From positions 10,317 through 74,316 of the forward strand of contig DATCJY010000066.1 in the NCBI GenBank assembly GCA_036562565.1: DNA of 64,000 nt. The letters are read 5' to 3'. The notes beneath the pieces are model-generated. The model did no database searches, was not told where the DNA came from, and saw only the letters and a list, made by a program, of their open reading frames with translations. The number at the start of each line of letters is the position of its first letter. Within the stretch, counting starts at the first letter, position 1. Positions 7,081-64,000 of the stretch are shown here, piece by piece. A program made the translations under genes and the position numbers. Origin of the DNA: Flavobacteriales bacterium (GTDB taxonomy: Bacteria; Bacteroidota; Bacteroidia; Flavobacteriales_D; Sanyastnellaceae).

Positions 7081-7124
7081 TATTGAATAGCTAACAATTT
7101 TTTTCATTAGCACCATCGCAATAA

Positions 7125-7166
7125 AACAATGCCCATCTCGTATCCGAGTACAGGATGGGCATTGTT
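7125..7166 (+). terminator. Strong hairpin downstream of the adhesin gene (terminator-like, no clear U-tract)
   Basis: AACAATGCCCATC (7125-7137) pairs perfectly with GATGGGCATTGTT (7154-7166), with a 16-nt loop. Confidence 0.5.
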
Positions 7167-7386
7167 CATTACTTGTGGATTGTTAACAGGCTCAAAATCA
7201 CAAGATGTTCAAAAAATACCTACAGCAAAACCGTCCAAACCCGCTGTGGGGGCTAAATTCGCGCGTGTTTTGCATCGTTGCGCCCACTATTCAAATCTTA
7301 CATTTCGTATAGTTTGTACACCAGGGCTGTAGAGTCCCAACTGCGGATGCAATTCAACTTTATTACCTGCAAATTTTAGAATCTTC

Positions 7387-9267
7387 ATGGCAGAACAAGT
7401 TCAGTATACAGAAGACAATATCCGCTCACTGGAGTGGAACGAACACATACGCATTCGTCCGGGTATGTACATCGGTAAACTGGGAGATGGCTCCTCTGCC
7501 GATGACGGTATCTATGTCCTTCTCAAAGAAATCATCGACAACTCCATTGACGAGTTTGTGATGGGACATGGAAAAACCATTGACATCACCATCAAAGACG
7601 GAGCAGTAACCGTGCGTGACTACGGACGCGGTATTCCGCTCGGAAAAATGGTAGATGCCGTCTCAAAAATGAATACCGGTGGTAAGTATGACTCACGCGC
7701 ATTCAAAAAGTCGGTTGGTTTGAACGGTGTGGGTACCAAAGCGGTAAACGCATTGAGCAGCTTCTTCCGTGTTGAAAGTGTTCGCGATGGTGAAAGCAAA
7801 TCGGCAGAGTTCTCAAAAGGTAATTTGCTCAAAGAAAACGCCATCACAAAAACCGATGCCAAGAATGGTACGACCACGCATTTTGTACCTGACCCAACCA
7901 TCTTCCTCAACTACCAATTCCGCGCGCAATACGTGGAAAAACTTCTTTGGAACTATGCATACCTCAATGCAGGATTGACCATTGTATTCAATGGTCAGCG
8001 TTTTAAGAGCGAGAATGGTTTGCGTGACTTGCTTGCAGCCAACATCGGTGAAGAGCAATTGTATCCAACGGTTCATCTCCGCGGTGAAGACATCGAAGTG
8101 GCCATCACTCACACCAACAGCTATGGCGAAGATTATTACAGCTTCGTAAACGGACAGTACACCACCCAAGGTGGTACACACCAGGCTGCATTCCGCGAGG
8201 CTTACGTGAAAGTAATTCGCGACTTCTTCGGAAAAGATTATGAGGCCGTGGATATCCGTTCCGGTATCACCGCAGCCATAGCCGTGAAAGTCATTGAGCC
8301 CGTTTTCGAATCTCAGACCAAAACAAAATTGGGCTCCAATGAGATTGAACCAAACGGCAAGAGCATGAAGGCATTCGTATTGGAATTCCTTCAGAAAGAG
8401 CTCGACAACTTTTTGCACAAGAATCCCGAAGTTGCCCAAAGCCTTCAGAAAAAAATTCTTCAAAGCGAACGCGAGAGAAAAGAACTATCGGGCATTGCAA
8501 AACTTGCACGCGAACGCGCCAAGAAGGCCAATCTTCACAACAAAAAACTTCGCGACTGCAAAGTTCATTACTGTGACAAACACGATCGCGCTGCAGAGAC
8601 CACCCTCTTCATTACCGAGGGGGATAGTGCAAGCGGTAGCATCACTATCAGTCGCGATGTGGCCACACAAGCCGTATTCAGCTTGCGAGGTAAACCACTC
8701 AACACCTATGGCATGACCAAGAAAGTGGTTTATGAGAACGAAGAGTTCAACTTGCTACAAGCCGCATTGGACATTGAAGATGGTCTCGATTCGTTGCGCT
8801 ACAACAAAGTCGTTATCGCAACCGATGCCGATGTGGACGGTATGCACATCCGACTCCTTATGATAACCTTCTTCCTGCAGTTCTTCCCGGATTTGGTGAG
8901 ACACGGACACTTGTATGTCCTTTCAACACCCTTGTTCCGCGTGCGCAACAAGAAGGAGACAATCTATTGCTATAGCGAACAAGAACGTATTGACGCCATT
9001 GCGAAACTTGGCAACAAACCTGAGATTACACGATTCAAAGGTCTTGGTGAAATATCTCCTGAGGAATTCAAAAAATTCATCGGACCGGATATCCGTCTGG
9101 AGCCCGTTGTTATCGGTAAGGACTCTCACCTAAAAGATTTGCTCGAGTTCTACATGGGTAAGAACACGCCCACAAGACAAGAGTTCATCATCAAAAACCT
9201 GAAGGTGGAGAAAGATGAAATCCTAGAAAAAGAGAATGTGAAGACGGTTGCAGAAACTGTGGAATAA
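7387..9267 (+). CDS. parE: Type IIA DNA topoisomerase subunit B, most likely topoisomerase IV ParE
   Basis: Motifs seen: [45 protein letters not shown], Toprim EGDSA and DADVDGMHI. The 626-aa length and N-terminal motif fit Bacteroidota ParE better than GyrB. A subunit A gene follows directly. Confidence 0.75.
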
Positions 9268-21680: not shown

Positions 21681-22394
21681 ATGGCATCTAAAGATCCCGC
21701 ACCAATAGACATTTCAGTTGATTGTGTAGTATTTGGTTTTGATGATAAAAAACTCAAGGTATTGCTCATCGAGCAAAAACAACCTGAGAGCGGACCACCG
21801 CTGAAGAACTTGCAGATGGCGCTACCGGGTGATTTGCTTAAAGCGAATGAGAGCTTCGACAAAGCGGCCAAGCGTGTATTGAAAGAATTGACTTCACTGG
21901 AAGGCATCTACCTCAAACAGTTCCATGCATTTGGCGATCCCAAGCGTGTGAAAGACCTCAAAGACCAAGAGTGGTTGCGCACCTTCAGAGCACACCCTGA
22001 AAGACGCGTAGTGACGATAGGTTATTACTCTTTGGTAAATCTTTATGACTATAAGCCTGTCGCATCCAGCTTTGCCGGTAAAACCAAATGGGTGGACGTT
22101 TACAATATCCCGGAGCTGGCCTTCGACCACAACATCATTGTGAACCATGCTTTGGAAACATTCCGTCATGAACTCATAGCTGACAATATAGGTTTTGAAT
22201 TATTGCCGGATAAATTCACTCTGACGCAGCTTCAACATTTGCATGAGATTATTTTGAATAAAAAGCTCGACAAACGCAACTTCCGCAAGGTGGTACTCAA
22301 GATGGACAGCATCAAACCCTTGGATGAAAAGCAAAAAGGTGCCCCGCACAAGCCCGCACAATTGTTTAAATACCAAAAGAAGAAAACCAGCTGA
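21681..22394 (+). CDS. NrtR-like regulator: degenerate Nudix domain plus C-terminal winged-helix domain
   Basis: 237 aa. The Nudix-box position reads GDLLKANESFDKAAKRVLKELTSLEG, so REUxEE is replaced by RVLKEL. The C-terminal part FTLTQLQHLHEIILNKKLDKRNFRKVVLKM resembles NrtR/AraR-type wHTH. Confidence 0.65.
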   Translation: MASKDPAPIDISVDCVVFGFDDKKLKVLLIEQKQPESGPPLKNLQMALPGDLLKANESFDKAAKRVLKELTSLEGIYLKQFHAFGDPKRVKDLKDQEWLRTFRAHPERRVVTIGYYSLVNLYDYKPVASSFAGKTKWVDVYNIPELAFDHNIIVNHALETFRHELIADNIGFELLPDKFTLTQLQHLHEIILNKKLDKRNFRKVVLKMDSIKPLDEKQKGAPHKPAQLFKYQKKKTS

Positions 22395-24682
22395 TGACTT
22401 CAATTGCCACCACTTTTGTCCATTACTTGACCAAGCCCTTTTGGACGCTTTGTGTGGTGGGAATGATATTATGTGGGCACCGCCTTTGTGCGCAATTTCC
22501 AATGCCTGATTTCGGTGCTGCATTTCTGCAAGATGAAGTGTCTACCATCCGCATCTTCATGGATACGGATGCTCTGAACGAAATGATAGAAGAGCAAGAA
22601 GATGAAATGTACTATCACGGTACTTTCATCTATCAAAGCTCTTTGCTTCATGATACGATTGAATATGTTGGCATACGCTTGCGCGGCAACACGAGTCTCA
22701 ACGCAGAAAAGAAATCCTTCCGCATCTCGTTCAACGCTTTTGAGCAAGGCGCCAAATGGCAGGAGCTTGAAAAACTCAATCTCATTGCTCAACAAAATGA
22801 CCCTTCACTGCTTAGAAGTAAGCTCTGCCATGACGCTTATCGTTATTATGGTATTACCTCTTGCAGAACCTCGTATGTAAAGCTTTACATCAACGATGAA
22901 TATCGCGGATTGTACTTGCATCAGGAACACATCGATGAAGAGTTTGCTAAAAAGTATTTTGACGGGCAAGGTGACGGTAACCTTTATAAATGCACGTATC
23001 CCGCGCCACTGCAATACCTTGGTTCAAATCCCGATTTGTATAAGCTGAACAGTTGGAATGGCCGCATCTACGATTTGCGTACCAATGAATGGCGCGACAA
23101 TTACAGCGATTTAGCGCAATTCATCACGGTTTTGAATAATACCCCCATCAATAATCTTGCGTGCGAATTGCCGAAAGTTTTCAATGTTGAGAGCTATCTC
23201 AAAGTGGCCGCATTGAATGTTTTGCTGGGCAACTGGGATGGATATATCTACAACCAAAACAATTATTACCTCTATCAAGACCAACGTACCGGTTTGATCA
23301 CATACATTCCTTACGATTTAGACAATACGCTCGGAATCGATTGGGTGGATAGGAATTGGGCCCAGCGCAACATCTATAATTGGGCACAATCAGGACAACC
23401 TCGTCCGTTGTATTGGCGATTATTACAAGTGCCTGAATACCGCGAGCGTTTCTCTTTCTACATCCATGAAATGTGTCAGGATTATTTCACTCCTGAAAAT
23501 TTTTATGCACTCTCACTACAATGGCAACAGTTGATTGCATCGGCCGTTGAAAATGATCCATACTACTCGCAAGACTTCGGCTATACCTACAATGATTTCC
23601 TTTCAGCCATCACAACAGCTTGGGGCGGGCATGTAGATTTTGGCATTGTTCCTTATGTAACAGCAAGGCGGCAGAGTGCATTGCAACAACTGGACGATAT
23701 CAGCACTCTTGCTCCGAATCCTCATTGGCTGACCAGTGAGACCATTGTGTACCGCCCCACGGACATCATTCATCTTCATAGTTTCATTGGGTCAACCAAT
23801 GATTTCTCTTGTGATTTATGGATTTCATCGGATAATGCATCTTGGACAAACACCGGCAATGAATTCGCGGACAACGGTGCTGTTTGGGATGTAGCCGCTG
23901 ACGGGATTTTCAGCTATTTCACGGCCAACAATCACGGAGGTGATAAGCTTTACTATAAACTCAATTGCGATGGATACGAATATCCATGCTCTCCCAAATT
24001 CATATGGACGACCAAGTCTTTGCTCGGAGTTTACATCAATGAAGTGATGTCATCCAACAGCACATCCATTACAGATGAATACGATGAACACGAGGATTGG
24101 ATTGAACTGTACAACAGCAATAGCTGGTCAATCAATCTAAATGGCAAATACCTGACCGATGATCTCCGCAACTGGAATAAGTTCCCATTGCCTCCTGTGT
24201 CCATTGGTCCCGGTGAATTCTTGATTATTTACATGGATGACCAACCCTATCAAGGACAACAACATGCGACATTCAAAGTCGGAGGAAATGATACGGATTT
24301 ATACCTAATCAATGTTGAACAAGGAGTCCCTCGCATCGCTGACCATTTCAATCCTGTGATTGCCCCCACAGATGTTTCATTATCACGCCTACCGGATGGA
24401 GGAGCTACCATTACACTGACCTCTTCCCCTACACCGGGTGCTACCAATGGTACAGTACATACCGATGAAAACAAGCTTACTGTTTGGTCAGTCTATCCCA
24501 ATCCTTCAACTGAAACAATTAAATGGAATGAAGGCAGAAAGGAAGTCATCCTGTATGATTTGCATGGCCATGCCATCAAAACATGCACCAACTGCAATGA
24601 ACTCCATGTGTCGGACTTGGCCGCAGGCCAATATTACCTACGCAGCGGAGCGCATGTGCATTCCATTGTCATTACCCGTTAA
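22394..24682 (+). CDS. Secreted CotH-family (atypical kinase-like) protein with a lamin-tail domain and a type A T9SS C-terminal sorting domain
   Basis: Signal peptide ...WTLCVVGMILCGHRLCAQ. CotH-like NNYYLYQD...IPYDLDNTLG. LTD-like VYINEVMSSN...HEDWIELYNSN. The C-terminal VYPNPSTETIKW...LAAGQYYLRSGAHVHSIVITR is T9SS-CTD-like. Confidence 0.75.
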   Translation: MTSIATTFVHYLTKPFWTLCVVGMILCGHRLCAQFPMPDFGAAFLQDEVSTIRIFMDTDALNEMIEEQEDEMYYHGTFIYQSSLLHDTIEYVGIRLRGNTSLNAEKKSFRISFNAFEQGAKWQELEKLNLIAQQNDPSLLRSKLCHDAYRYYGITSCRTSYVKLYINDEYRGLYLHQEHIDEEFAKKYFDGQGDGNLYKCTYPAPLQYLGSNPDLYKLNSWNGRIYDLRTNEWRDNYSDLAQFITVLNNTPINNLACELPKVFNVESYLKVAALNVLLGNWDGYIYNQNNYYLYQDQRTGLITYIPYDLDNTLGIDWVDRNWAQRNIYNWAQSGQPRPLYWRLLQVPEYRERFSFYIHEMCQDYFTPENFYALSLQWQQLIASAVENDPYYSQDFGYTYNDFLSAITTAWGGHVDFGIVPYVTARRQSALQQLDDISTLAPNPHWLTSETIVYRPTDIIHLHSFIGSTNDFSCDLWISSDNASWTNTGNEFADNGAVWDVAADGIFSYFTANNHGGDKLYYKLNCDGYEYPCSPKFIWTTKSLLGVYINEVMSSNSTSITDEYDEHEDWIELYNSNSWSINLNGKYLTDDLRNWNKFPLPPVSIGPGEFLIIYMDDQPYQGQQHATFKVGGNDTDLYLINVEQGVPRIADHFNPVIAPTDVSLSRLPDGGATITLTSSPTPGATNGTVHTDENKLTVWSVYPNPSTETIKWNEGRKEVILYDLHGHAIKTCTNCNELHVSDLAAGQYYLRSGAHVHSIVITR

Positions 24683-37031: not shown

Positions 37032-37985
37032 TCAAAACACTGCTTTAGCAATGGCCTTCGTACTCTTGGCTTTACCCATGGTGTAATAATGCAAGACAGG
37101 TGCACCACCTTTCATGAGTTCTTTGGACTGCTCAATGCACCACTCTATTCCTATCTCTCGCACCGCTGCATCGTCCTTGGCTTTTTCTACCGCTTGTACA
37201 AGTTCATCCGGTAAATTGATATGGAAATGATGCGGTATCACGCTGAGCTGTGCCTTGGATGCAATAGGTTTTAATCCGGGAATAATAGGAACGGTGATAC
37301 CATACTCGCGGCACTCATCCACAAATTTGAAATATGCTTGGTTATCAAAGAACATCTGGGTGACAATGTATTCCGCTCCCGCATCCACTTTGGCTTTTAG
37401 ATGTCGCAAGTCAGCTTTGCGATTGGGCGCTTCAAAGTGCTTCTCCGGATAACCCGCTACTCCGATACAAAAATTGGTTTTGGTTGTTTCTTTCAAATCA
37501 CTGTCAAGGTAGCGACCATTGTTCATGTTCACGACCTGATGTACGAGTTCCACGGCATAAGTATGTCCATTTGGTTCGGGCTTGAAACGGCCTTCACTTT
37601 TAATAGGGTCGCCACGCAACACTAGGATGTTATCAACTCCAAGAAAATTAAGATCAATCAATGCATCTTCGGTATCCTGCTTCGTAAAACCTCCACATAT
37701 AATGTGCGGTATAGTATCTATTTTGTATTTGTGTGAAAGTGCCGCACAAATCCCTACTGTACCCGGTCGCTTGCGCACAACATGCTTCTCCAGCAAACCA
37801 TTGCCAGCATTGCGATATACATACTCTTCGCGATGATAGGTAACATCCACAAAAGCCGGTGAGAACTCCATGAGTTCGTCCATCGTTTCAAAAAGAGTTT
37901 CTATGGTTTCTCCTTTCAGCGGTGGCAGTATCTCAATGGAAAATAGCGTTGACTTAGCCTTTGCAATATGTTCGGTTACTTTCAT
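37032..37985 (-). CDS. metF: 5,10-methylenetetrahydrofolate reductase
   Basis: 317 aa. FSIEILPP, the VTYH... start, LRGDP, and AGYPEKH. Location downstream of metH supports the call. Confidence 0.9.
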   Translation of the reverse strand: MKVTEHIAKAKSTLFSIEILPPLKGETIETLFETMDELMEFSPAFVDVTYHREEYVYRNAGNGLLEKHVVRKRPGTVGICAALSHKYKIDTIPHIICGGFTKQDTEDALIDLNFLGVDNILVLRGDPIKSEGRFKPEPNGHTYAVELVHQVVNMNNGRYLDSDLKETTKTNFCIGVAGYPEKHFEAPNRKADLRHLKAKVDAGAEYIVTQMFFDNQAYFKFVDECREYGITVPIIPGLKPIASKAQLSVIPHHFHINLPDELVQAVEKAKDDAAVREIGIEWCIEQSKELMKGGAPVLHYYTMGKAKSTKAIAKAVF

Positions 37986-38072: not shown

Positions 38073-40814
38073 TCAATAGGATAGGTTTGGAGAAAGCCAT
38101 CTCTCAGCCGTGTCAATATCTATTCCCTTGCGTTTTGCATAGTCCTCAACTTGGTCTTTGGTGATTTTTCCTAAACCGAAATATTTGGCTTCCGGATGTG
38201 CGAAGTAGTAACCGCTCACAGCAGCAGTTGGATACATCGCCAGTGAATCAGTAAGTTCCAAACCGATGTTTTCCTTCACTTGTAACAACTTCCAAATGGT
38301 GAGTTTTTCCAAATGGTCAGGACAAGCCGGATAACCGGGAGCCGGACGAATGCCCCTGTACTTTTCATCAATCAAAGCTTCGTTATCGAGTTGCTCATCC
38401 TTAGCATATCCCCACAACTCGGTGCGTACCTTTCGATGCATGTACTCTGCTAGGGCTTCTGCAAGGCGGTCAGCCAAAGCCTTTGCAAGAATGGACGAGT
38501 AATCATCGTGTTTGACGCCATACTCCTCAACAAGTCTGTCTAACCCGAAACCGGCACATACGGCAAAGCATCCGATATAGTCCTGCACGATGCTTTCTTT
38601 AGGCGCGATAAAATCAGCGAGTGCAAGATTGGGCTGCCCTGCTGTTTTCTTTGTCTGTTGGCGCAATGTTCTAAAAACTGCATCATATCCAGGAAGCACG
38701 ATATCATCTTGCTGACTGTATGCAGGAAAAATGCCTACCACCGCACGTGCGCTCAATCGCTTGTTCCTTACAATATCATGAAGCATGTGTTGTGCATCGT
38801 TGAACAATTTGGTAGCCTCTGTTCCTACTACCTCATCCTTTAAGATAGCAGGATATCGCCCCGCTAACTCCCAGGTTTGGAAAAACGGTGTCCAATCGAT
38901 ATACGGCACCAATTCCTCCAATGCTATGTCATTATATACTTCTATTCCGATGCGCTCAGGCGTATGAATCGTGGTTTCATCAAACAGGAGTTGCAGTTTG
39001 TTTGCACGTGCTTCTTCGATGCCTAAGAAGGATTTGGAAGATGTATTGTTGGCATAATGCTCGCGAACACGCGCGTACTCCCGCCTTGTTTCTTCAATAA
39101 AATCTTTCTTCAAATCGGTGCTGAGCAAATTGCTCACCACAGTCACTGCTTTGCTTGCATCCAACACATGCACCACCAGTTGATCATAGCATGGCTCAAT
39201 CTTCACGGCTGTATGCACGCGTGAAGTTGTAGCTCCTCCAATCAGTAATGGAATTTTTAATCCTCTTCGTTGCATCTCTTTTGCAACATGTATCATCTCA
39301 TCAAGCGAAGGGGTAATCAATCCTGAAAGACCGATGGCATCCACGTTTTCCGCGATAGCTGTTTCGATAATCTTCTCTGCCGGCACCATTACACCAAGGT
39401 CAATGATGTCATAGTTATTGCATGCCAACACCACGGAAACAATGTTTTTACCAATATCATGCACATCTCCCTTCACAGTAGCAAGAAGAACTTTTCCTGC
39501 TCCCCTGCCTCCCAATGGCGTGTGAGCCGCTGGAATTTGTTTGGCATATTCTTCCTTCTCTTTCTGAAGAAATGGTTCCAAATAAGCCACTGCTTTTTTC
39601 ATCACGCGTGCACTTTTCACGACCTGCGGCAAAAACATTTTTCCTGAGCCAAACAAATCACCAACAATGCTCATACCGGCCATAAGTGGCCCTTCAATCA
39701 CCTGAAGCGGTCTTCCATATTTCTGCCTTGCTTCTTCGGTGTCTTCATCAATGAAGTCAACGATGCCTTTCACAAGTGCATGCGACAAGCGATCCTCAAC
39801 ACTGCCATTACGCCATGATAAGTCTTGCGCGCTACCTTTCCTTGCCGACTCTTTGTTGCGCTCGGCATATTCCATAAGTCGCTCTGTGGCATCCTCTCTG
39901 CGATTGAGCACAACATCCTCCACGAGCTCAAGCAAATCCTTCGGTATCTCATCATAGACTTCAAGCTGTGCAGGATTTACAATGCCCATGTCCATTCCGG
40001 CATTGATTGCGTGATACAAGAAGACGGAATGAATCGCTTCACGCACGCGGTTGTTGCCCCTAAATGAAAACGATACATTGGATACACCACCACTCACCAA
40101 TGATCCGGGAAGATGTTGCTTGATCCATCTGGTGGCTTCAAAGAAGTAAACCGCATTGTTGCGGTGTTCTTCCATACCTGTTCCAACAGGAAAAATATTC
40201 GGATCGAAGATGATGTCACTTGCATTGAACTTGACTTTATCCACCAAGATGCGGTAAGCACGTTCGCATATCTGAACACGTCTTTCGTATGTATCTGCCT
40301 GACCCTCTTCATCAAAGGCCATCACAATCACTGCGGCACCATAGCGCTTAACCTTCTTTGCTTTCTCAATAAAATCCGCTTCACCATCTTTGAGTGAAAT
40401 GGAGTTCACCACACACTTGCCTTGCACACACTTTAGTCCGGCTACTATGACTTCCCACTTAGATGAGTCAATCATGATAGGAATGCGCGCAATATCCGGT
40501 TCACTAGCAATCAAGTTGAGAAACTTGGTCATGGCCGCAACTCCATCAATGAGACCTTCGTCCATGTTTACATCTAGGATCTGCGCACCGTCTTCCACTT
40601 GTTGACGAGCAACCGCTATGGCTTCATCAAACTTATCTTCTTTGATAAGATTCAAAAAGACTTTTGAACCCGTCACGTTGCAACGCTCACCTACGTTGAT
40701 GAAGTTGCTTTCGTTCGTTGCAATGAGCGGCTCTAGACCGGAAAGTTTTAGCTTGACAACCTGCTGTTGTCTTTCCCTCGCTGTGGTATTGTCTATTTTA
40801 TTCTCTGTATTCAA
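38073..40814 (-). CDS. metH: Methionine synthase, C-terminal polypeptide (pterin-binding, B12-binding and AdoMet-activation modules)
   Basis: 913 aa. Pterin-binding GERCNVTGS. Cobalamin motif [11 protein letters not shown] with [10 protein letters not shown]. The reactivation domain ends in ...[12 protein letters not shown]. Confidence 0.9.
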
Positions 40815-40877: not shown

Positions 40878-41888
40878 TTAGTGAAAGCCAACAGCCAAAG
40901 GCTTTGGTTTTCTCGGTGCATAATCCTTTGCTACCTCAGCAATCGCCTTGATGTGTTCAGGGGTTGTTCCACAACAACCACCTACAATGTTCACCAATCC
41001 TTTCTCGAAATAAGGTCGCATCAGGCTTGCCATATACTCTGGTGATTGATCGTATTGCCCCATCGCATTGGGCAGTCCTGCATTGGCATATACGCTTACC
41101 AAACAATCCGCATGATTGCTCAGTATTTCCACATATTGCATGAGTGCTTCCGCCCCCATAGCACAATTGAAGCCGATGCTTAATAAAGGAACATGTGACA
41201 CGGATATCAAGAAAGCCTCTGTGGTTTGTCCGGAAAGAATGCGTCCACTTGCATCTGTTATGGTTCCCGATACCATTATGGGAAGTTCCTTACCGGATTC
41301 ATCTTGCCATTCCTGAATGGCATATAGGCAAGCCTTCGCATTGAGCGTATCGGTAATGGTTTCGACAAGAAAAGCGTCTACACCGCCATCGGCTAAAGCT
41401 TGAACTTGCTGCTTGAATGCTACAACCAGTTCATCAAAAGTGATAGCGCGATAGCCGGGGTTGTTTACATCCGGTGACATGGAAGACAGCTTGGTTGTGG
41501 GACCGATAGACCCCGCAACAAATCGCGGTTTTGAGGGATTCTTTGAGGTAAACTCATCGGCCGCTTCGCGAGCAATCTTAGCGGCTTGATAGTTGATGTC
41601 ATAGACCAAATGTTCCAAGCCATAATCCGCTTGAGAAACTGTAGTACCGCTGAAAGAGTTGGTCTCAATGATATCAGCACCTGCTTCCAAGTATTGCACA
41701 TGTATCGCTTTAATGACATCCGGGCGGGTGATACTAAGCAGGTCATTGTTGCCTTTTATTGGAAGTGGATGCTCCTTCAACGCATCATTGCGAAAGTCTT
41801 CCTCTTTGAGTTGATAGCGCTGAACCATGGTTCCCATCGCTCCATCAAGGATGAGAATGCGCTGCATGGCTAGTTCTTTAATTGTCAT
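40878..41888 (-). CDS. Homocysteine S-methyltransferase domain protein (N-terminal module of split MetH)
   Basis: 336 aa. ILDGAMGT start, IIETNSF, and the zinc-ligand pair in VGGCCGTTPEHI. It ends 63 nt upstream of the metH C-terminal polypeptide. Confidence 0.85.
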   Translation of the reverse strand: MTIKELAMQRILILDGAMGTMVQRYQLKEEDFRNDALKEHPLPIKGNNDLLSITRPDVIKAIHVQYLEAGADIIETNSFSGTTVSQADYGLEHLVYDINYQAAKIAREAADEFTSKNPSKPRFVAGSIGPTTKLSSMSPDVNNPGYRAITFDELVVAFKQQVQALADGGVDAFLVETITDTLNAKACLYAIQEWQDESGKELPIMVSGTITDASGRILSGQTTEAFLISVSHVPLLSIGFNCAMGAEALMQYVEILSNHADCLVSVYANAGLPNAMGQYDQSPEYMASLMRPYFEKGLVNIVGGCCGTTPEHIKAIAEVAKDYAPRKPKPLAVGFH

Positions 41889-41989
41889 TTATCCCAATAA
41901 GCTTATACAGCCAATGAGGCCGCTGTTGTTAAGCTCTTCAAGAAAATTACGGGATGACACATGCGGACGAATGATTGAACTCCGCTGCC

Positions 41990-42103
41990 TCATCTATCTT
42001 CAGTCTCTGATTGGTGAGCTGAAGTAGGAATTGGCACCCGCCTTTTACTCGGGTTGCCAGGACTTCTCAGGGCCTATCCCTCCGTCCTTCTTGATAAAGC
42101 GGG
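41990..42103 (-). promoter_or_regulatory. SAM-I (S-box) riboswitch aptamer in the leader of the split-metH/metF operon
   Basis: The minus-strand read is GCUUUAUCAAGAAGGACGGAGGGAUAGGCCCUGAGAAGUCCUGGCAACCCGAGUAAAAGGCGGGUGCCAAUUCCUACUUCAGC...CUGAAGAUAGAUGAGG. The conserved SAM-I blocks are all present in order: UUAUCAAGA, GGAGGGA, GGCCC, GGCAACC, GGUGCCAAUUCC and a closing GAUAGA. It sits about 100 nt upstream of the ATG at 41888. Confidence 0.85.
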
Positions 42104-42198: not shown

Positions 42199-43476
42199 AT
42201 GCCATACTTATTCACCTCAGAATCGGTTTCGGAAGGACATCCCGACAAAGTTGCGGATCAAATCTCTGATGCGCTCATAGATCATTTTCTCGCATATGAC
42301 CCCTCTTCCAAAGTGGCTTGTGAGACTTTAGTCACTACCGGTCAAGTAGTGCTTGCCGGTGAAGTGAAATCTTCTGCTTACTTGGATGTACAGGACATCG
42401 CTCGTGATGTGATCAGAAAAATTGGTTATACTAAAAGCGAGTACATGTTCGAAGCCAATTCTTGCGGTATCCTTTCAGCCATTCACGAACAATCACAAGA
42501 CATCAACCAAGGTGTTGAGCGCAAGAAGCCCGAAGATCAAGGTGCCGGTGACCAAGGTATGATGTTCGGCTATGCAACCAACGAAACAGACACGTATATG
42601 CCGTTGGCTTTGGAAATCGCACACCTTATGTTGCGTGAGCTTGCGGACATCAGAAGAGAGGCAGCTGCAGGCAAAGAGAAAAGAATGACCTACTTGCGCC
42701 CTGATGCGAAGAGCCAAGTAACCATCGAGTACAACGATGACAATCAACCTATCCGCATCGATGCCATCGTTCTTTCTACTCAGCACGATGAGTTTGCGAA
42801 AGACTCAGTGATGTTGAAACAAATCAAAGATGATGTCATCAACATCCTCATCCCGCGTGTGACGAAAAAACTTCCAAAACGCGTACAAGCTTTGTTCAAC
42901 GATAAAATCAAGTACCACATCAACCCTACCGGTAAATTCGTAATCGGTGGGCCACATGGTGATACGGGTCTTACAGGTCGCAAGATTATCGTGGATACAT
43001 ACGGTGGTAAAGGCGCTCACGGTGGTGGTGCATTCTCCGGTAAAGACCCATCCAAAGTGGACCGCTCAGCTGCATATGCAACACGCCACATTGCTAAGCA
43101 CCTAGTTGCTGCAGGTATTTGTGATGAAGCTTTGGTACAAGTTGCTTACGCTATCGGTGTGGCTAAGCCGGTAGGACTTTATGTAAACACTTATGGCACT
43201 TGCAAAATCAACATGACCGATGGTGAGATTGCAAACAAAATCCTCAAAATGCCTGAGTTCGATATGCGCCCTTACTTCATAGAGAAGCGCTTCAACTTGC
43301 GCACCCCTATCTATTCAGAAACCGCTGCATACGGACACATGGGACGCGAATGCAAAGAAGTAGTGAAGGTGTTCAACAAAGGCAAAGCCAACGAGAAAAA
43401 AATGAAAGTGAAATTGTTCCCATGGGAAGAATTGAACGCTCTCGATGCTGTTAAGAAAGCATTTGGTATTAAATAA
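42199..43476 (+). CDS. metK: S-adenosylmethionine synthetase
   Basis: Motifs [25 protein letters not shown], and [16 protein letters not shown]. Confidence 0.97.
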
Positions 43477-44692: not shown

Positions 44693-45106
44693 TTACCATA
44701 ATGTCGATAAATAATTTACACGGTTACTCATTCATTTCTAAACACATAACCTGAGAACCTCATTATTTATTGAATAGCACGTAACCTTTCATCATTGCTC
44801 CGTATAAGGTACTCGTACCACAAAAACATATTTTTCTTATGCGCAGAGAAACAATACCTGCCACATCTGTTCCACCTATTCTACTTTACCTCTCATTGGG
44901 TTTTGCCCATCTCTCTCAGATGCGCATTCCTTGGTGGAATAACTTTTTATCTGATAAAATTTTGAGTTGACGAAACCTGTATATATTTACCCAATCCTTC
45001 TCAAAGGAAGGTTTCCACCACTCCGAAAGTATCTCTATACGGGCGTACCACCCATCAACTTCTATTGAATTAAAAGCATTATTATTCTAACACATTACGA
45101 GTGTAT

Positions 45107-46324
45107 ATGAAGAAATTATACATCACTGTTGCGGCATTGATGATGGGTTTGGCAGTTGCTGCTCAAGCCCCAAATCGCATGAGCTATCAAGCAGTCATCC
45201 GCGACAATAACAATTCACTTATTACAAACTCCACTGTAACCACGCGTATTGCGCTGCTTCAAGGTTCTGTAAATGGAACCGAAGTATATGCTGAATTGCA
45301 CAATGCCGAAACAAACGTCAACGGACTACTCAGCATTCAGATAGGAAGTGGACAAGTAATCTCCGGCAACTTTAGTGACATTGATTGGGCAGCCGGCCCC
45401 TATTTTCTAAAGATGGAAACAGATCCGACCGGAGGTTCCAACTTCAGCATCATATCAACCCAACAACTGTTGAGTGTGCCATATGCATTGTATGCAGCCT
45501 CTGCAGGTAATGCGATTCCCGGGCCACAAGGTGAACCCGGACCTCAAGGAGAACCCGGTCCACAAGGAGAACAAGGCCCACCCGGAAACGCCAACATCAA
45601 TGGCAACATCAATTACGTTGTAAAGTTTACCGCTCCTTCAACCGGTGGAGATTCTCAGATTTATGATAACGGTTATCAAGTAGGTATCGGCACATCTGTC
45701 GGATTAGAAAAGCGCCTTGAAGTAGCTGGTACCGGAAGATTCACTCATATAAGCGCAAACGAAACTTTCCAAGAAGCAGCGATTATTACGAAATCCACTC
45801 CACAAGCGGTGCAATGGGCATCCATTGGATTTGATAACGATGCCGGATTTAAGAACGGTTCTCTTGGTTTCAGCGGAGGTACTACTTATGGTACTTACCT
45901 GATGATGCAAGGAGATGGCATGACCAATGCCAGCTGTCAGGCCCAATCCTTTGTATCTGCGAGCGATTATCGTTTAAAAAAGGACATTCAGCCGATATCG
46001 GATTTCAATCTGTATCTTGAAAAAATTCGTGGTGTTCAATCCATTACCTACCGATATAAAACAGAAGATGCAACCTCATCTCCGCATATTGGGTTTATAG
46101 CTCAAAGCCTTCCAGATGGTGTAAAGGCTGATCTGCTACAACTCAAGAGAACAGATGATCAAGAAAAATTTGTGGGCGTGAATCTTACAGACATGAGTGG
46201 TCTTTTGCTTAATGGTGTGAAAGCACTTGACGTGAAGCAACAAGAATTAGAAAATACTATTCAAGCGCAACAGCAACTCATCGATGAGTTAATGAAGCGC
46301 ATTGAGATGTTGGAGAAGAAGTAA
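45107..46324 (+). CDS. Secreted collagen-like fibre protein with C-terminal tail-fibre-type intramolecular chaperone (Peptidase_S74-like) domain
   Basis: ATG at 45107 (the track start is an upstream GTG). Signal peptide MKKLYITVAALMMGLAVAAQA. A conserved N-domain of about 115 aa ends in [16 protein letters not shown]. Seven GXY triplets [22 protein letters not shown] follow. The C-terminal SDYRLKKDIQP...SPHIGFIAQSLP... plus coiled coil matches the endosialidase/tail-fibre chaperone domain. Confidence 0.8.
   Translation: MKKLYITVAALMMGLAVAAQAPNRMSYQAVIRDNNNSLITNSTVTTRIALLQGSVNGTEVYAELHNAETNVNGLLSIQIGSGQVISGNFSDIDWAAGPYFLKMETDPTGGSNFSIISTQQLLSVPYALYAASAGNAIPGPQGEPGPQGEPGPQGEQGPPGNANINGNINYVVKFTAPSTGGDSQIYDNGYQVGIGTSVGLEKRLEVAGTGRFTHISANETFQEAAIITKSTPQAVQWASIGFDNDAGFKNGSLGFSGGTTYGTYLMMQGDGMTNASCQAQSFVSASDYRLKKDIQPISDFNLYLEKIRGVQSITYRYKTEDATSSPHIGFIAQSLPDGVKADLLQLKRTDDQEKFVGVNLTDMSGLLLNGVKALDVKQQELENTIQAQQQLIDELMKRIEMLEKK
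45521..45586 (+). repeat. Collagen-like GXY triplet tract (7 triplets)
   Basis: [21 protein letters not shown], read directly from the translation. Confidence 0.9.
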
Positions 46325-46378
46325 TCTTAAACCATACGAATACTTTAAATTATTCATTCATTAATTTTTAAAAACAGC

Positions 46379-46864
46379 ATGAACAAAAGCAAAAAAGTTC
46401 TCTTTGGAACCGGTCTCGTACTGGGAACCTTAGGAATGCACGCTCAGCAGAATACTGTGGCCTCAGGAGGAGAAGCCATAGGTCTTGGCGGAAGTGTGAG
46501 CTTTTCAGTAGGGCAAATTGATTACATCACTATTTCCGGTTCAGGTGGAAGAATGACTTTGGGGGTTCAGCAACCCATTGAAATTTATCCGGTGAGTGTA
46601 AATGATTTGCACATTGAATTGCACGCCTCAGTGTTCCCAAACCCTGCGAGAGACGGTATGACTTTGCGAATTCCTGCCGCTCTTCAGTTGAGCGAAATGG
46701 GATACCGCATTTATGATTTACTAGGAAATCTGGTAGTGGACAAAAAGGTTGATGGCCCTGATACATTTATCGATTTGGCGAACCTTTCCAACGCTACATA
46801 TCTCCTCACTGTTTACAACAAGGAAAACGATTTAACTACTTTCAAATTCATTAAGAATCAATAA
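46379..46864 (+). CDS. Mini T9SS cargo: about 60-aa Gly-rich passenger plus type A T9SS C-terminal sorting domain
   Basis: 161 aa. Signal peptide ...GTLGMHAQ. Passenger [50 protein letters not shown]-like [14 protein letters not shown]...[11 protein letters not shown]...ATYLLTVYN...FKFIKNQ (nt about 46625-46861). Confidence 0.75.
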
Positions 46865-46869
46865 TTAAT

Positions 46870-48489
46870 ATGAGAAAAATCTATTCTGTACTTGCCGGAT
46901 TGATGCTCAGCGTAGCAGCTATGGCACAAGTACCACAAGGAATGAGTTATCAGGCGGTGGTGCGCAACGCGTCCAATGAACTCATCGTCAATACAAACGT
47001 TGGTGTGCGCATCAGCATTATTCAAGGTTCATCTATTGGTACCCCGGTTTACGTAGAAACTCAAAACGTTACTACAAACCTCAACGGTTTGATGTCTTTG
47101 ACTGTTGGCGCTGGAACTGTGGTAACCGGTAACTTCTCAACTATCAACTGGGGTGACGGTCCATACTTCATCAAAACAGAAACCGATCCAACAGGTGGTA
47201 CCAACTATACCATTTCAGGTGTTCAACAATTGTTGAGTGTTCCTTACGCTCTTTATGCAGCCAATGCCGGTAGCGGTGGTGGTACTCCCGGTCCACAAGG
47301 TCCACAGGGTCCTCAAGGTGAGCCTGGCCCTCCTGGCCCTCCTGGCCCTCAAGGCCCACAAGGTCCTCAAGGTCCACAAGGCCCTCCAGGAGAAGGTTCA
47401 GGTGGAACATTGGATGAAGCCTATGACTTTGGTGGTCCCGGTGCCGGCCGTACAATTACTGCTGATGCTGGTGCTGTGACTATTAATACTGTATCTGTAA
47501 ATGCGACAGCCTTAGAAATAAACAACAATGGCTCTAACAACATCGGTGTGGATGTAAACCTGAACAATAGTGGTGCAGGTATCCGTGCAAGAAGTACTAG
47601 CGCTTCCAACCAATACCCATCCATCCAAGCTGAAACGAACAGCTCGGCAGCTCTTAACTCTGCCATTGTTGCTCAAACTACTGGTGCGGCTTTCGCACTT
47701 AGCGGTCAAGCTGTATCCACATCCACAGCTGATGGTGCTGTATTTGGTAACAACCTAAGAACAAATGGTGGTACCGGTGTGTACGGTATAGGTTTTGACG
47801 GAGTAATTGGACAAACACAACTTAGCTCTGGTGTTGGTGTGTATGGTGTGAACATGGCCTATGCCAATGCGCAAGGTGATGCAATGGGCGTTTTAGGTGA
47901 GGGTGATTTAGTCGGAGTAGCCGGATATGCGGTGGACGAAGACTACGGTTATGGTATATTCTCGTTTGGCCATCTTGGTGCATTGGGTGATATTGACGCT
48001 CTAGGTACTAAGAACTTCACTATCGATCATCCAATTGACCCTGCCAACAAACTCTTGCGTCATGCAGCTGTAGAATCAAATGAAGTGTTGAACATCTATC
48101 GTGGAAATGTTGTTTGTGATGCAAACGGTAATGCCACTGTAGAGCTTCCTTCTTACTTCTCTGCTATCAACAAGGAGTTCTCTTACATCCTTACTCCAAT
48201 TGGTGGTGCAGCTCCTGAATTGCACGTGATGTCTGAAATTGTTGATGGCCAATTCACCATTGCCGGTGGTAAACCAAATATGAAAGTTTCATGGCAAGTA
48301 ACCGCTCAAAGAAATGATGTGTATATGCAAGACCATCCTTTCCAACCTGAGCAAATGAAGCCGGAGCACAAACAAGGTACTTACCTCTATCCACAAGGTT
48401 ATGGTCAAGGCAATGACCAGCTTTACATCCATAAGCCTGAACACAAGCTTCCTACTCAACAAGAACTTCAATTGATTAAAGAGAAATAA
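46870..48489 (+). CDS. Secreted collagen-like fibre protein, paralogous N-domain, Gly-rich beta-structure region, distinct C-terminal domain
   Basis: 539 aa with a signal peptide. By my hand alignment, its N-domain is about 60 percent identical to that of 45107-46324. Thirteen GXY triplets. A Gly/Val-rich repetitive region follows ([13 protein letters not shown].., GVGVYGV..). C-terminal [30 protein letters not shown].. is a domain of unknown function. Confidence 0.8.
47281..47397 (+). repeat. Collagen-like GXY triplet tract (13 triplets)
   Basis: [39 protein letters not shown]. The underlying DNA is a near-periodic 9-nt repeat (ggtccacaa / ggtcctcaa / ggccctcct). Confidence 0.9.
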
Positions 48490-48512
48490 TCCTACTCTTT
48501 AAAATGATTAAA

Positions 48513-48551
48513 CGATAAAGGCCGCAGAGTTGCGGCCTTTATCGTTTTTTT
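48513..48551. terminator. Bidirectional terminator between the fibre locus and obg
   Basis: CGATAAAGGCCGCA-GAGT-TGCGGCCTTTATCG is a 14-bp perfect stem, followed by T7. Confidence 0.85.
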
Positions 48552-53692: not shown

Positions 53693-53766
53693 TCCTCAGT
53701 AGCTCAGCTGGTTAGAGCACATGACTGTTAATCATGGGGTCCCTGGTTCGAGCCCAGGCTGGGGAG
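53693..53766 (+). tRNA. tRNA-Asn (anticodon GTT), CCA not encoded
   Basis: Hand-folded cloverleaf. The acceptor stem TCCTCAG/CTGGGGA has 7 bp with one G-U. D-arm AGCTCAGCTGGTTAGAGC. The anticodon loop CTGTTAA gives GUU. T-arm GGTTCGAGCCC. The discriminator G is followed by CAAA, not CCA. Confidence 0.9.
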
Positions 53767-60849: not shown

Positions 60850-62835
60850 CTATTGTTTGATAAAACGTGTAGTGCTTGCCCCTGATGTGAAAAGATATAC
60901 TCCGGAAGACAGCGCGTCCACATCTATAAACAATTGATTTTGATTGGTGCGTGCTGATTTCACAACTCTTCCTGTCATATCGGTAATCCGCCAATCGTTG
61001 ATTGATTTATTGGCCGTCACTTGCAACAAGGAATTAACCGGGTTAGGGAACAATTGCACTCGGAGGTCATTCATCTCTTCCACACTTGCATAGACTACCT
61101 CAAAATGAAAAGTATCGGACCACTCACCTTCTCCACAACCATTGATTCCGCGGACTCTCCAATATCCTTCCGTCCCAAAATTTTGAATGTAGAGTTGTAC
61201 GGAATTATTGCTTACCAATTGTTCAATGTATAAGTCTCCGGAAAAGTCAGGTGTACCTGACACCTGAATTTGATAGCTCGAAGCATTGTTCAACGAAGTC
61301 CAACTGAACTCCGCAATATTCTGATTAAATACGACACCACCGTCTTCAACAGCTAACAAAATTGGTGCATTCGGAGTGTTTCCGGCAATCACCACAGTGA
61401 GTGGAAATTCATATTCCTGTTCAAAGTTGGTTTGCAACAACAAGCGTGGATGATACACTCCCTCTGCAATGTTTTCTAGACCGGTTATTTCAATTTCGTA
61501 AGTACCGGTTTCGGTGATGTTGATACTGTTTATGGAAGCACCGGGCAATCCGCTCAAAGCGGTAGTCAATGGAAATGCTAATTCGCTGTTGATGGTTAAG
61601 TCAAATTGAATTTGCTCGGCATTACACAATTCCCAAGTCTTTTGAGAAAGCACCACCATTTTAGGACGGGTGATAAAAATGCCTTCATACATACTAGTGG
61701 CAATGTTCACTCCACTTGGAAGAAACGCATAATTGCTCCATGTTCCGCTAAATACCGGAGCATCATTCAAAGGAAATAAATCGAAGTAGGCTATCTCATT
61801 CATTAACCCCTCATCAATTCGGATGACATCGAATATGCGCAAACCACTGCGATAATTGCTTTGATACATGAAGTGGTCATCGATGTAAAAATTATGGTCT
61901 ATCGCTGTGTTGTCGGTTTCATGAAAACCTTGGTAAACAAGATGATCCAAATCGGTGATATCGAAAATGTGCGTGCGGGTGCCGTATGGCGTGTTAGTTA
62001 TTGCGAATGTTTGTTCATCCAGCTCATCGTTTAGGAGAAAATGACGCTTATCCTTCGTCACCCAACCTTGGTGAATATAGCCTCTATTGTTATAGGTATA
62101 ATTTCCTAATGACTCGCAGTCCGTTTTATCTGTACAGTCAACTACAGCCAGTTTGGTACCATTACAAGCAAACACAATTTGCTTTCCCTGATGCTCTACA
62201 TCCGGTCCATCATAATTCCAGATAAAACAATCATGTGTGTAGCCCTCCAATGCAAAACCACCGGCAAGCGTTGGTTGAAGGGGATTTGAAATATCTACGA
62301 TGTGCAGACCTCCTGCGTACGTATCCGTTCCATTGGCATACAAAAATCCATTCAAGGTATCAATGGCAATGGTGTGACTGTTGCTGAATCCGGCATAATG
62401 TGCGGTTTCCTGAAAGATGGTCGGAATGTTCTGCACATGATCCAATTGCGTAAGATCAAATATTTGAAGCCCATGCCCTGCAGCCTCACTGCCAATAAAG
62501 CAATAATTCTTGTAGGTTTCCAAGTCTCTCCATAGGCTATTGGTGCTATGAGAAGGCAGTAAACCCAGATACACCGGATTTACAGGATCACTGATATCAA
62601 GAAAAGCCGTTCCGTTACTGCATCCTACAAGGGCATACTCTTTGCCAGTGTTAGGACTCACCCACCCCCAGATATCATTGGTATTCTCTCCATGGCCCAT
62701 TGCTGAAAGGGGCACGAAAGCCAACAAGTCCACATGCTCACAAGGATAGTTGCCGGCCATCCCATTGATACAGGGTGTTTGTGCAGATAAGAGAGAACTA
62801 AATGCGAGTGCAAAGAAGAGCGCTTTAAACTTCAT
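60850..62835 (-). CDS. Secreted beta-propeller-like protein (choice-of-anchor B / LVIVD-like) with type A T9SS C-terminal sorting domain
   Basis: 661 aa with a signal peptide. The N-terminal PCINGMAGNYPCEHVDLL...NDIWGW is as I remember for the choice-of-anchor B family. C-terminal LFPNPVNSLLQV...LSSGVYLFTSGASTTRFIKQ is T9SS-CTD-like. Confidence 0.6.
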   Translation of the reverse strand: MKFKALFFALAFSSLLSAQTPCINGMAGNYPCEHVDLLAFVPLSAMGHGENTNDIWGWVSPNTGKEYALVGCSNGTAFLDISDPVNPVYLGLLPSHSTNSLWRDLETYKNYCFIGSEAAGHGLQIFDLTQLDHVQNIPTIFQETAHYAGFSNSHTIAIDTLNGFLYANGTDTYAGGLHIVDISNPLQPTLAGGFALEGYTHDCFIWNYDGPDVEHQGKQIVFACNGTKLAVVDCTDKTDCESLGNYTYNNRGYIHQGWVTKDKRHFLLNDELDEQTFAITNTPYGTRTHIFDITDLDHLVYQGFHETDNTAIDHNFYIDDHFMYQSNYRSGLRIFDVIRIDEGLMNEIAYFDLFPLNDAPVFSGTWSNYAFLPSGVNIATSMYEGIFITRPKMVVLSQKTWELCNAEQIQFDLTINSELAFPLTTALSGLPGASINSINITETGTYEIEITGLENIAEGVYHPRLLLQTNFEQEYEFPLTVVIAGNTPNAPILLAVEDGGVVFNQNIAEFSWTSLNNASSYQIQVSGTPDFSGDLYIEQLVSNNSVQLYIQNFGTEGYWRVRGINGCGEGEWSDTFHFEVVYASVEEMNDLRVQLFPNPVNSLLQVTANKSINDWRITDMTGRVVKSARTNQNQLFIDVDALSSGVYLFTSGASTTRFIKQ

Positions 62836-62890: not shown

Positions 62891-64000
62891 TTATCGGAAT
62901 AATGTTATATGCCCTTGGATTTCATAAGGTTGATCCAGCATATCCCGAAAGTGAATTACATATTGATAAACCCCATTGGGGACATAATAATCTCCATCTC
63001 GATAATCTCCGGTCCACGGCTCTTCAGTATCATAACTTTCAAAAATCTTTTCTCCCCAACGGTTGTATATCTGTATGTGATATTCCTTCATACCACTTGT
63101 GACCGGCTTCCATACATCATTGATACCATCGCTATTGGGTGAGAAAGTATTCGGTACATAGATGCTATAACCGCCTACGGCTACTTGTCCTGTGATTTCA
63201 TCCTTACAACCAAACTCATTGAGTACATGCTGGGTGATATAATGATAGCCTGCCGTTTGCCATATGTGAGTAAAATCTCTCACCCCATACGAACTGCCAT
63301 CCGACAAAGTATAGTACACATAACTGGCACCGATGGATGAGTCGCGCACACTCACAAAAGAATTCTGTATATCTACTTGTTGCGGATCGATAACAAATCG
63401 TGCCACCGGCACAGGATGCACCTTCACAACATTCGGAAATACTTTGGTCAAAGTCTCCACACAACCGGTAGTTGTACTCACTGTAACCGAAACATCGTAA
63501 TTTCCGGAATGTTCATAGGTATGCAAAAAACTGGCAAATGAGCTAGTTGTCCCATCACCCAAATCCCAATGATACGAGAGTGGAGTATCGGACTGAACAT
63601 TGGCAACAAAGCTCACTGTCAACTCCGGGCAACCCTCTGCTTCCTCTATCTGAAAATCGGCAATCATGTTTTTGGGCACCCAAATCACATCTTGGTATGT
63701 TCTATCGCACCCATTCTCTTGTATGCGCAAGGTGACTGTGTGATAACCTGGCTCATTAAACACGATAGATTGCGGATTCTGCTGATGGCTCACAGGCACA
63801 TTGGCTGCAGGTCCAAAATCCCACGTGTAGGACGCATTTGATGTGGTAGCACCCAACGCTTGAAAATTGAAACTGTTTGAATCAAAGCATTGAGGTGCTT
63901 GTTCCGGGAAATAAGGATTTAGGTGTCCATAAATGGCAAACTCCATTGTAGCCGTATCCGGACAAGTAAAAGGCGCACTCACTATCAATGTTACCTGATA
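62891..64000 (-). CDS. Partial CDS (C-terminal part; frame stays open to window end): PKD-repeat protein with type B T9SS C-terminal domain
   Basis: PKD-like WDFGPAANVP.. and WDLGDGTTSS.. segments. The C-terminus YVPNTFSPNSDGINDVWKP...IYNRWGEKIF...GHITLFR is homologous to the CTD of 3127-7080. The codons upstream of the track start (a TTG) contain no stop before nt 64000. Confidence 0.8.
   Translation of the reverse strand, partial: YQVTLIVSAPFTCPDTATMEFAIYGHLNPYFPEQAPQCFDSNSFNFQALGATTSNASYTWDFGPAANVPVSHQQNPQSIVFNEPGYHTVTLRIQENGCDRTYQDVIWVPKNMIADFQIEEAEGCPELTVSFVANVQSDTPLSYHWDLGDGTTSSFASFLHTYEHSGNYDVSVTVSTTTGCVETLTKVFPNVVKVHPVPVARFVIDPQQVDIQNSFVSVRDSSIGASYVYYTLSDGSSYGVRDFTHIWQTAGYHYITQHVLNEFGCKDEITGQVAVGGYSIYVPNTFSPNSDGINDVWKPVTSGMKEYHIQIYNRWGEKIFESYDTEEPWTGDYRDGDYYVPNGVYQYVIHFRDMLDQPYEIQGHITLFR

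Follow-up and report, generated by a model that had tools for sequence, protein, structure and literature searches.

A stretch of 64,000 nucleotides (nt) from the assembly GCA_036562565.1 of a Flavobacteriales bacterium (contig DATCJY010000066.1, positions 10,317 to 74,316), called here the window, contains a compact group of three open reading frames (ORFs) on the + strand. All three are read in the same direction, with gaps of 54 nt between gene 1 and gene 2 and of 5 nt between gene 2 and gene 3. Genes 1 and 3 code for fibre proteins that resemble the mosaic adhesive trimer (MAT) fibres of Bdellovibrio, and gene 2, to which we refer as P, codes for a small type IX secretion system (T9SS) cargo protein. 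The main finding of this work is that fibre genes of this kind are nearly always accompanied by a P gene in the Bacteroidota loci surveyed. From their adjacency, their domain content and their co-variation, we think it very probable that P and the fibres are functional partners.

Over their N-terminal 133 residues, genes 1 and 3 share 57% identity (E = 4e-50), and both contain the same 12-residue sequence, and the remainder of the two proteins is unrelated. This supports the view that they are paralogues, with a shared N-domain, collagen-like stalks and different tips. Q20 and P22 are invariant in the N-domain family, which places a glutamine at the predicted signal-peptide cut, and the model of the gene 3 N-domain (aa 22-122) has a predicted local distance difference test score (pLDDT) of about 90. 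The only Pfam matches on the two fibres are Collagen and Peptidase_S74. The first (PF01391) scores 20.4 and 21.4 bits, under the gathering score of 27.2, because the tracts of Gly-X-Y (GXY) triplets are short; relatives with longer tracts pass easily. The second (PF13884) covers aa 286-335 of gene 1 with 45.8 bits against a cut-off of 22 (E = 7.3e-12), and the catalytic Ser-Lys motif SDxxxK is present there as SDYRLK. PHROG tail-fibre families match the same end of gene 1, down to 1e-14. Gene 1 is expected by homology to trimerise and then to cleave itself; for the two fibres, the only pointers to trimerisation are the GXY tracts and the S74 domain.

In gene 3, which has no Pfam family beyond the sub-threshold collagen match, the Gly/Ala/Asn-rich middle aligns to phage tail-fibre models; in the monomer model it has moderate confidence over aa 190-280, low confidence over aa 292-382 and no regular secondary structure. 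The C-terminal tip shows many invariant columns over 62 homologues and is modelled with a pLDDT of about 94. Among BFVD structures, gene 3 matches minor tail and tail-fibre proteins of phages, the best at 3e-10, and its fold has no match in the PDB at E <= 1e-3. A sequence search for relatives of solved structure found nothing for the N-domain, for the passenger of P or for the tip of gene 3. Gene 3 has more than 5,000 homologues, and the source names visible among the 120 listed are all 'hypothetical protein'. Neither fibre matches the type A (Por_Secre_tail) or type B (CHU_C) sorting domain of T9SS cargo, even at E <= 1, and both signal peptides are ordinary, without a lipoprotein cysteine. 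With sorting domain and lipoprotein signal both absent, no known autonomous route to the cell surface was recognised for the fibres.

P combines a Sec signal peptide with a C-terminal sorting domain above the cut-off in two models (TIGR04183 over aa 85-160, 43.5 bits versus 23, E = 2.3e-11; PF18962, 40.4 bits versus 27, E = 3.8e-10), which together qualify it as a type A T9SS cargo. The sorting domain is modelled as a confident beta-sandwich, and its profile matches the translocon-bound sorting domains 8glj_D and 8glk_D. Little else is left in the protein than a passenger, in which Q23, G30, G38, S41, G45, Q46, Y49, G62, Q64 and Q65 are invariant over an alignment of 20 homologues and for which Pfam, NCBIfam, PHROGs and PDB searches gave no match. 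The most conserved part of the passenger (aa 22-61) is modelled with a pLDDT below 50, and such a conserved segment of low pLDDT is the usual picture of one that would fold on a partner. An exhaustive profile search placed 2,827 clusters of 50% identity in the P family at E <= 1e-30. The size of P is uniform, about 152-165 aa, and the fibres extend from 255 to 3,175 aa.

All five variant forms of P that were checked, two of about 600 aa and three divergent ones, keep the sorting domain. The two long variants, L023 8138-9925 of Winogradskyella aquimaris and L046 8116-9912 of a Chryseobacterium metagenome-assembled genome (MAG), start with the motif in their mature form and end in the sorting domain, with an insert of about 450 aa without Pfam match in between. 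In a protein of 3,404 aa (P0143), 24 distinct segments match the part of the P profile that represents the sorting domain, a pattern suggestive of a long array of immunoglobulin-like (Ig) repeats of sorting-domain type.

These results agree to a large extent with an earlier note on this DNA that was made from the sequence alone. The co-directional trio with gaps of 54 and 5 nt is found as described, with the three ORFs at the coordinates of Table 1. The common N-terminal domain had been estimated at about 115 aa with about 60% identity, close to the values given above, and the divergence of the two fibres after the tract fits with the lack of any relatedness beyond the N-terminal part. Database models now back the self-cleaving chaperone end of endosialidase type on gene 1, the Sec signals of the fibres without a T9SS sorting domain, and a gene 2 made of a passenger of about 60 aa plus a type A C-terminal domain (CTD), with about 60 mature residues before the sorting domain that begins at aa 85. 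The GXY runs had been counted as 7 and 13; the second figure is right for gene 3, and the unbroken run of gene 1 has 8 triplets.

Table 1. Features of the three-gene locus and its borders, in window coordinates
Feature	Position	Strand	Remarks
Gene 1, MAT-like fibre, S74 type	45107-46324	+	405 aa
Gene 1 N-domain, aa 20-133	45164-45505	+	predicted signal-peptide cut A19/Q20
Gene 1 collagen-like tract, aa 139-162	45521-45592	+	8 GXY triplets
Gene 1 S74 intramolecular chaperone/self-cleaving domain, aa 286-405	45962-46321	+	SDYRLK at aa 286-291
Gene 2 (P), small T9SS cargo	46379-46864	+	161 aa
P passenger, aa 23-80	46445-46618	+	conserved motif of about 55 aa, with ...GVQQPYEI
P type A T9SS sorting domain, aa 85-161	46631-46861	+	PF18962, TIGR04183
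Gene 3, MAT-like fibre, non-S74 type	46870-48489	+	539 aa
Gene 3 N-domain, aa 20-133	46927-47268	+	modelled seven-strand beta domain, then short helix
Gene 3 collagen-like tract, aa 138-176	47281-47397	+	13 GXY triplets
Gene 3 Gly/Ala/Asn-rich middle, aa 177-380	47398-48009	+	from composition
Gene 3 C-terminal tip	48010-48486	+	beta-sandwich core about aa 405-490
Intergenic region before gene 1	44693-45106	+	414 nt
Putative Bacteroidota-type promoter	44961-44989	+	TTTG 44961-44964, 17-nt spacer, TATATTTA 44982-44989; found by eye
Hairpin	48510-48547	.	17-bp perfect stem, 4-nt loop, then T-run on the + strand; between convergent gene 3 and obg

The association of P with fibre genes was surveyed from both sides, using scoring profiles for the passenger and the N-domain that were built in-house. 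On the fibre side, a scan with the N-domain over one genome per species gave at least 595 confirmed relatives, and the best 80 loci, which span Flavobacteriales, Bacteroidales, Chitinophagales and Cytophagales-type MAGs, were analysed. They hold 95 fibre genes in 77 independent loci, and 92 can be evaluated, as three are cut off at a contig end. Directly behind a P gene stand 74 of these, with a median gap of 13 nt, and two more follow a divergent P that is recognised by the full-length profile (76/92). Another eight follow a further fibre gene in a run headed by P, which brings the fibre genes in P-headed operons to 84 of 92 (91%). On the other side, a metagenome scan with P was carried out and the best 80 P genes were analysed; eight of them have too little downstream DNA, and an N-domain gene follows 70 of the remaining 72 (97%), with a median gap of 6 nt and several overlaps. 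Seven more P homologues examined singly each have a confirmed N-domain fibre directly downstream, and an eighth, for which no DNA could be had, has an Lcl_C protein of 494 aa 6 nt downstream.

A single P can be followed by as many as four fibres that differ in their tips, and a fibre gene upstream of P, as gene 1 is in the window, is unusual among the surveyed loci. Judged by gene order, the conserved unit is P followed by one to four fibres and not the trio. The co-occurrence of three families, on which the earlier note made its hypothesis depend, holds in part: the trio is not a conserved unit, and the pair of P and fibre recurs across the phylum. No third conserved gene family accompanies the pair in the 77 loci, where the commonest neighbour, a generic ABC ATPase, is present in nine.

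The two kinds of protein divide their parts in a consistent way. None of 83 complete fibres carries a sorting domain (E <= 0.001), and their tips are diverse: Lcl_C in 24, Fib_succ_major in 15, S74 in seven and Collar in three, with YadA_head, BclA_C and others in addition. In pairwise comparisons over 75 pairs, identity averages 64% in the N-domain, 50% in the passenger and 37.5% in the sorting domain. With the sorting domain controlled, divergence of the passenger correlates with that of the N-domain at a partial r of 0.44; with the passenger controlled, the value for sorting domain and N-domain is 0.13. The test is confounded by shared ancestry and by differences in rate. We regard these values as suggestive of co-variation between the passenger of P and the N-domain of the fibre.

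A few loci have neighbours that deserve mention. In L007, a metagenome locus, a PorV-family gene (PF19572, E = 2e-58) at 6578-8008 shares 8 nt with the start of P and comes after a giant ORF (1-6343) of more than 8,000 aa; it is the only paralogue of a T9SS shuttle found beside the pair. Two related loci (L088 8893-11173 and L089 8748-11055) have a Peptidase_M28 gene and two tandem phage tail 'Collar' proteins of about 185 aa downstream of the pair. The P genes without an N-domain gene downstream are L095 60-548 and L110 2978-3454; in one case an unrelated ORF of 436 aa comes about 310 nt later, and in the other a Cys/His-rich ORF of 165 aa and then an ORF of 732 aa of unassigned family come next. 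Short contigs from MAGs assigned to Bdellovibrio, Gammaproteobacteria and Comamonadaceae (L036, L076 and L084) carry pairs with about 60% identity to the Bacteroidota N-domain, and these host labels are probably binning errors.

The relation of the fibres to those of Bdellovibrio is given by the N-domain, for which NF053851 (Bdello_MAT_N) is the sole matching NCBIfam model (gene 1, E = 2.7e-8; gene 3, E = 5.4e-7). This model matches 25 of 25 diverse members of the family, the best with E = 2.5e-13, and the match survives removal of the signal peptide, with 8.6e-8 for gene 1 and values of 1e-8 to 1e-10. It covers positions 14-78 of the 162 in the profile and reaches 30-41 bits against a curated cut-off of 60, so that we call genes 1 and 3 homologues outside the curated Bdellovibrio subfamily. 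Since NF053851 is the only model matched, the fibres are best described, from this homology, as Bacteroidota relatives of the MAT fibres.

A MAT protein consists of a signal peptide, a conserved beta-rich N-domain of about 130 aa, a trimeric fibre and a tip that is S74 or other, and the supplementary Table S3 of the same work already lists MAT proteins of the FCB group, from Saprospiraceae, Salinivirga, Kordia, Patiriisocius and Dokdonia (Caulton et al. 2024, PMC10769870). The window fibres share with them the signal peptide directly before a beta-rich N-domain, the first half of which is detectably homologous, and the swappable tips; the split of genes 1 and 3 into S74 and non-S74 forms parallels the layout of the Bdellovibrio family. 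They differ in their size, 405 and 539 aa versus about 1000 aa, in having a collagen tract as stalk, and in the second half of the N-domain, which is the most conserved half in the window fibres and is unmatched by the Bdellovibrio profile. The T9SS-tagged partner gene that nearly always adjoins the Bacteroidota fibres is a further difference. The earlier note knew of no functional description of these genes. For the fibres this no longer holds, as they appear to be of the MAT kind described in 2024, with FCB members in the supplement; for the pairing with P, the openly searchable literature gave no description, and no link between MAT fibres and T9SS. One paper that names both treats them as separate systems.

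With moderate confidence, we favour a reading of these data in which P would supply the fibres in trans with both a T9SS signal and a surface anchor. All three proteins would enter the periplasm via Sec, where the fibres would form trimers by way of their collagen tracts and tips; gene 1 would then shed its S74 chaperone by a cut at Ser286. The P motif would bind the conserved fibre N-domains, and the sorting domain of P would take the complex through the T9SS translocon. After removal of the sorting domain, P would stay on the outer membrane, gripping the N-terminal end of the fibre with the tip outward, and the tips may act as adhesins. Because the T9SS signal is C-terminal and becomes the attachment point, and the C-terminus of these fibres would be both folding nucleus and working tip, a sorting domain provided in trans would solve a topological problem. 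The co-export step itself, in which a folded trimeric fibre without CTD would be carried through the translocon by a peptide of about 55 residues plus a sorting domain and then be tethered by that peptide, we put forward more tentatively, as a possibility about which we have considerable doubt.

The earlier note had proposed a surface-fibre system in which the small T9SS cargo serves as export or anchoring adaptor for trimeric fibres with interchangeable distal domains. Much of this stands: the locus is chromosomal and no prophage, the fibres are paralogous, and P appears as a dedicated partner in view of the near-obligate adjacency, the lack of sorting domains in the fibres and the co-variation. 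The trio as a unit does not stand, and we infer export or anchoring through gene 2 in the same manner as trimerisation, binding of P to the N-domain, T9SS dependence, surface anchoring and adhesive function.

Several points weigh against P as carrier and anchor. The support for the partnership comes from comparative genomics throughout, and its co-variation part is subject to the confounding already mentioned. Since both surveys used the 80 best-scoring matches, their percentages describe the subfamilies closest to the window. Eight of the 92 evaluable fibre genes have no detectable P upstream, and two of the 72 evaluable P genes have no fibre downstream. In the window, gene 1 precedes P, so that a rule of 'P first' is not enforced by operon order. 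In the openly searchable literature, no case was found in which the T9SS exports a protein that has no sorting domain itself. Finally, MAT fibres are on the surface of Bdellovibrio, which is not known to have a T9SS, and so N-domains of this kind are not intrinsically dependent on a sorting-domain carrier.

This last point is the main fact in favour of what we see as the main rival: P would be secreted alone by the T9SS and would dock the fibre N-domain on the outer membrane, the fibres crossing by another route, as those of Bdellovibrio presumably do. The lack of a precedent for T9SS export in trans speaks for it as well, and synteny and co-variation fit it equally well. We nevertheless consider it rather unlikely, as the fibres would need a surface route of their own and none is recognisable in them, neither sorting domain nor lipoprotein signal nor any Pfam domain other than Collagen and Peptidase_S74. 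Moreover, the tight and often overlapping junctions between P and fibre genes suggest co-production for an encounter in the periplasm.

P might alternatively assist the N-domain in the periplasm, helping it to assemble or holding it, for example against premature trimerisation or aggregation, and afterwards be disposed of via the T9SS without carrying or anchoring the fibre. A passenger that is conserved yet predicted to be disordered, and that serves several fibres from one gene, would suit such a task. This explanation leaves the full sorting domain on every examined P unexplained and the fibres still without an export route, and it seems to us improbable. Still less credit can be given to an adjacency without functional coupling, in which P would be an independent small secreted protein that shares the fibre promoter: rates of 97% and 91% in two independent surveys, across Bacteroidota orders and in contexts otherwise unrelated, are hard to reconcile with it, and so is the co-variation of passenger and N-domain.

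The weakest explanation, that the cassette is hardware of a phage, a tailocin or a contractile injection system, can draw on the S74 domain, the many PHROG tail-fibre matches, the BFVD tail-fibre matches of gene 3 and an IMG/VR contig (L092) on which a helicase of phage type and a tail-fibre-like gene lie close to a divergent pair, and is hardly credible against the lack of phage genes within about 22 kb here and near the trio of a close relative, the lack of a recurrent neighbour family in 77 loci, the lack of any tblastn match of the N-domain in 50,697 phage genomes, its presence at only two loci in 2.9 million viral contigs versus at least 595 confirmed relatives in species genomes, and the Sec signal peptides on all three proteins, which virion proteins lack. 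A prophage origin of the locus is rejected in view of the housekeeping flanks together with the absence of recurrent neighbours and of the N-domain from the phage genomes. The L092 pair (9497-11437 on an 88-kb contig) comprises a divergent P, with the motif STAGD...QLSWTVGEVTIE...QGFHQ and an intact sorting domain, followed by a fibre with a shortened N-domain, with a DnaB-like helicase and a tail-fibre-like gene nearby. P and N-domain are both divergent in this pair, which is an exception, a mobile copy of a rare kind.

The proposed role of P as carrier and anchor can be compared with other systems. In Flavobacterium johnsoniae, the filament SprB is a type B cargo with its own sorting domain, and the adjacent SprF is an outer-membrane barrel partner of the PorP/SprF-like type. 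There too, a dedicated accessory gene adjoins that of a surface filament and is needed for T9SS handling, as we propose for P; the difference is that the window fibres have no sorting domain and that the partner, a passenger of about 60 residues, bears the domain itself. Among collagen-like surface proteins, BclA of Bacillus, Scl1 and Scl2 of Streptococcus and Lcl of Legionella also present a globular distal domain on a short GXY triple-helix stalk, and Lcl_C and BclA_C tips occur among the relatives of the window fibres. BclA is held N-terminally on a basal-layer protein. The anchoring of these proteins is different, through LPXTG sortase, exosporium or type II secretion, and Scl models match the window fibres over the collagen tract only, far below the cut-off. 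With S74 phage fibres and tailspikes, such as K1F endosialidase and the T5 L-shaped fibre, gene 1 shares the S74 domain with SDxxxK, and differs from them in its Sec signal peptide, in an N-domain of cellular type not found in the phage genomes and in the lack of a virion gene cluster. The logic proposed for P is that of the Tat 'hitchhiker' or peroxisomal 'piggyback' mechanism, by which a signal-less folded protein crosses a membrane bound to a signal-bearing partner (PMC9251779). Machinery and membrane are different there, and the review of such hitchhikers reports no case for the T9SS (PMC9251779).

From its occurrence in the surveys, a dedicated T9SS-tagged partner appears to be a new and very widespread feature of fibres of the MAT kind. 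Once the pair is recognised, two large families of Bacteroidota that lack a name can be given a working annotation. If P carries or anchors the fibres, they would form an exception to the rule that a T9SS cargo bears its own CTD, and prediction of cargo by CTD only would overlook a whole class of surface adhesins; co-export, if true, would define the first 'hitchhiker' cargo class for the T9SS. A surface partner would also be at hand for MAT-type N-domains, a family with thousands of members in Bacteroidota. In the study of Bdellovibrio, no surface partner of the MAT N-domain was identified (Caulton et al. 2024, PMC10769870), and we think that P is a concrete candidate for what holds this domain on the cell. 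Modular tips of lectin-like or phage-like type on a constant base could suit surface display.

The surroundings of the trio have a housekeeping character. About 22 kb on each side contain methionine-cycle genes, LpxK, Obg, Adk, AccD, a GH65 enzyme and similar functions, with no phage genes, which agrees over this whole distance with the housekeeping flanks described before. The same trio lies in the same place in an 84%-identical relative (L001), with no phage genes nearby. The upstream neighbour is a ThiF/rhodanese (MoeB-like) gene that ends at 44692, and obg is convergent with gene 3 on the downstream side. The hairpin between these two is probably the terminator of the interval; its stem had been given as 14 bp, and 17 perfect base pairs are counted. 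NCBI holds records of the exact window proteins under a MAG named 'Flavobacteriales bacterium': HEY8404603.1 for gene 2, HEY8404600 for MetK and HEY8404605 for Obg. The name of the gene 2 product is only 'T9SS type A sorting domain-containing protein'. Three further T9SS cargos, unrelated to the trio, are encoded in the window: a CotH kinase with a lamin-tail domain and a weak type A sorting domain (22394-24682, +), an LVIVD-repeat protein with a type A sorting domain (60850-62835, -) and a PKD protein with a CHU_C type B sorting domain (62891-63988, -). As both signal types are represented among them, the host uses the T9SS.

The start of gene 1 is likely the ATG at 45107, which is favoured because the in-frame GTG upstream at 45101 is not conserved in L001. 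The intergenic region before it had been described as a 414-nt untranslated leader. The length is correct; the name is not justified for the whole region, as only the last 135 nt or so (44973-45106) are almost identical in L001, the remainder being diverged, and a promoter-like pair lies inside. We infer this pair, TTTG and TATATTTA, in the conserved block; the second element has one mismatch to TAnnTTTG, which we take to be the consensus. For that reason a strict Bacteroidota promoter pattern missed it; this pattern gave matches at chance level and none in the 414-nt region. Rfam has no match in the same region, and its RNA fold is not significant (z = -0.09). A degraded P gene upstream of gene 1 was sought with tblastn (20 P proteins) and with an unfiltered hidden Markov model search in the three forward frames, and discarded, the best E being 0.17. 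Repeats at the locus are those of the collagen codons, the shared end of the N-domains and the terminator hairpin, with none of the kind found at invertible promoters. A small hairpin, CCTTC...GAAGG, lies at about 44996-45011 and has one compensatory change in L001.

Other features of the window are of a general kind. A SAM (S-adenosylmethionine) riboswitch (RF00162, 79 bits) at 41987-42100 on the - strand lies upstream of minus-strand methionine genes, namely homocysteine S-methyltransferase (40878-41888), MetH (38073-40814) and MTHFR (37032-37985), and MetK (42199-43476) is divergent from this riboswitch-led group. A tRNA gene (RF00005, 65 bits) is located at 53693-53766 on the + strand.

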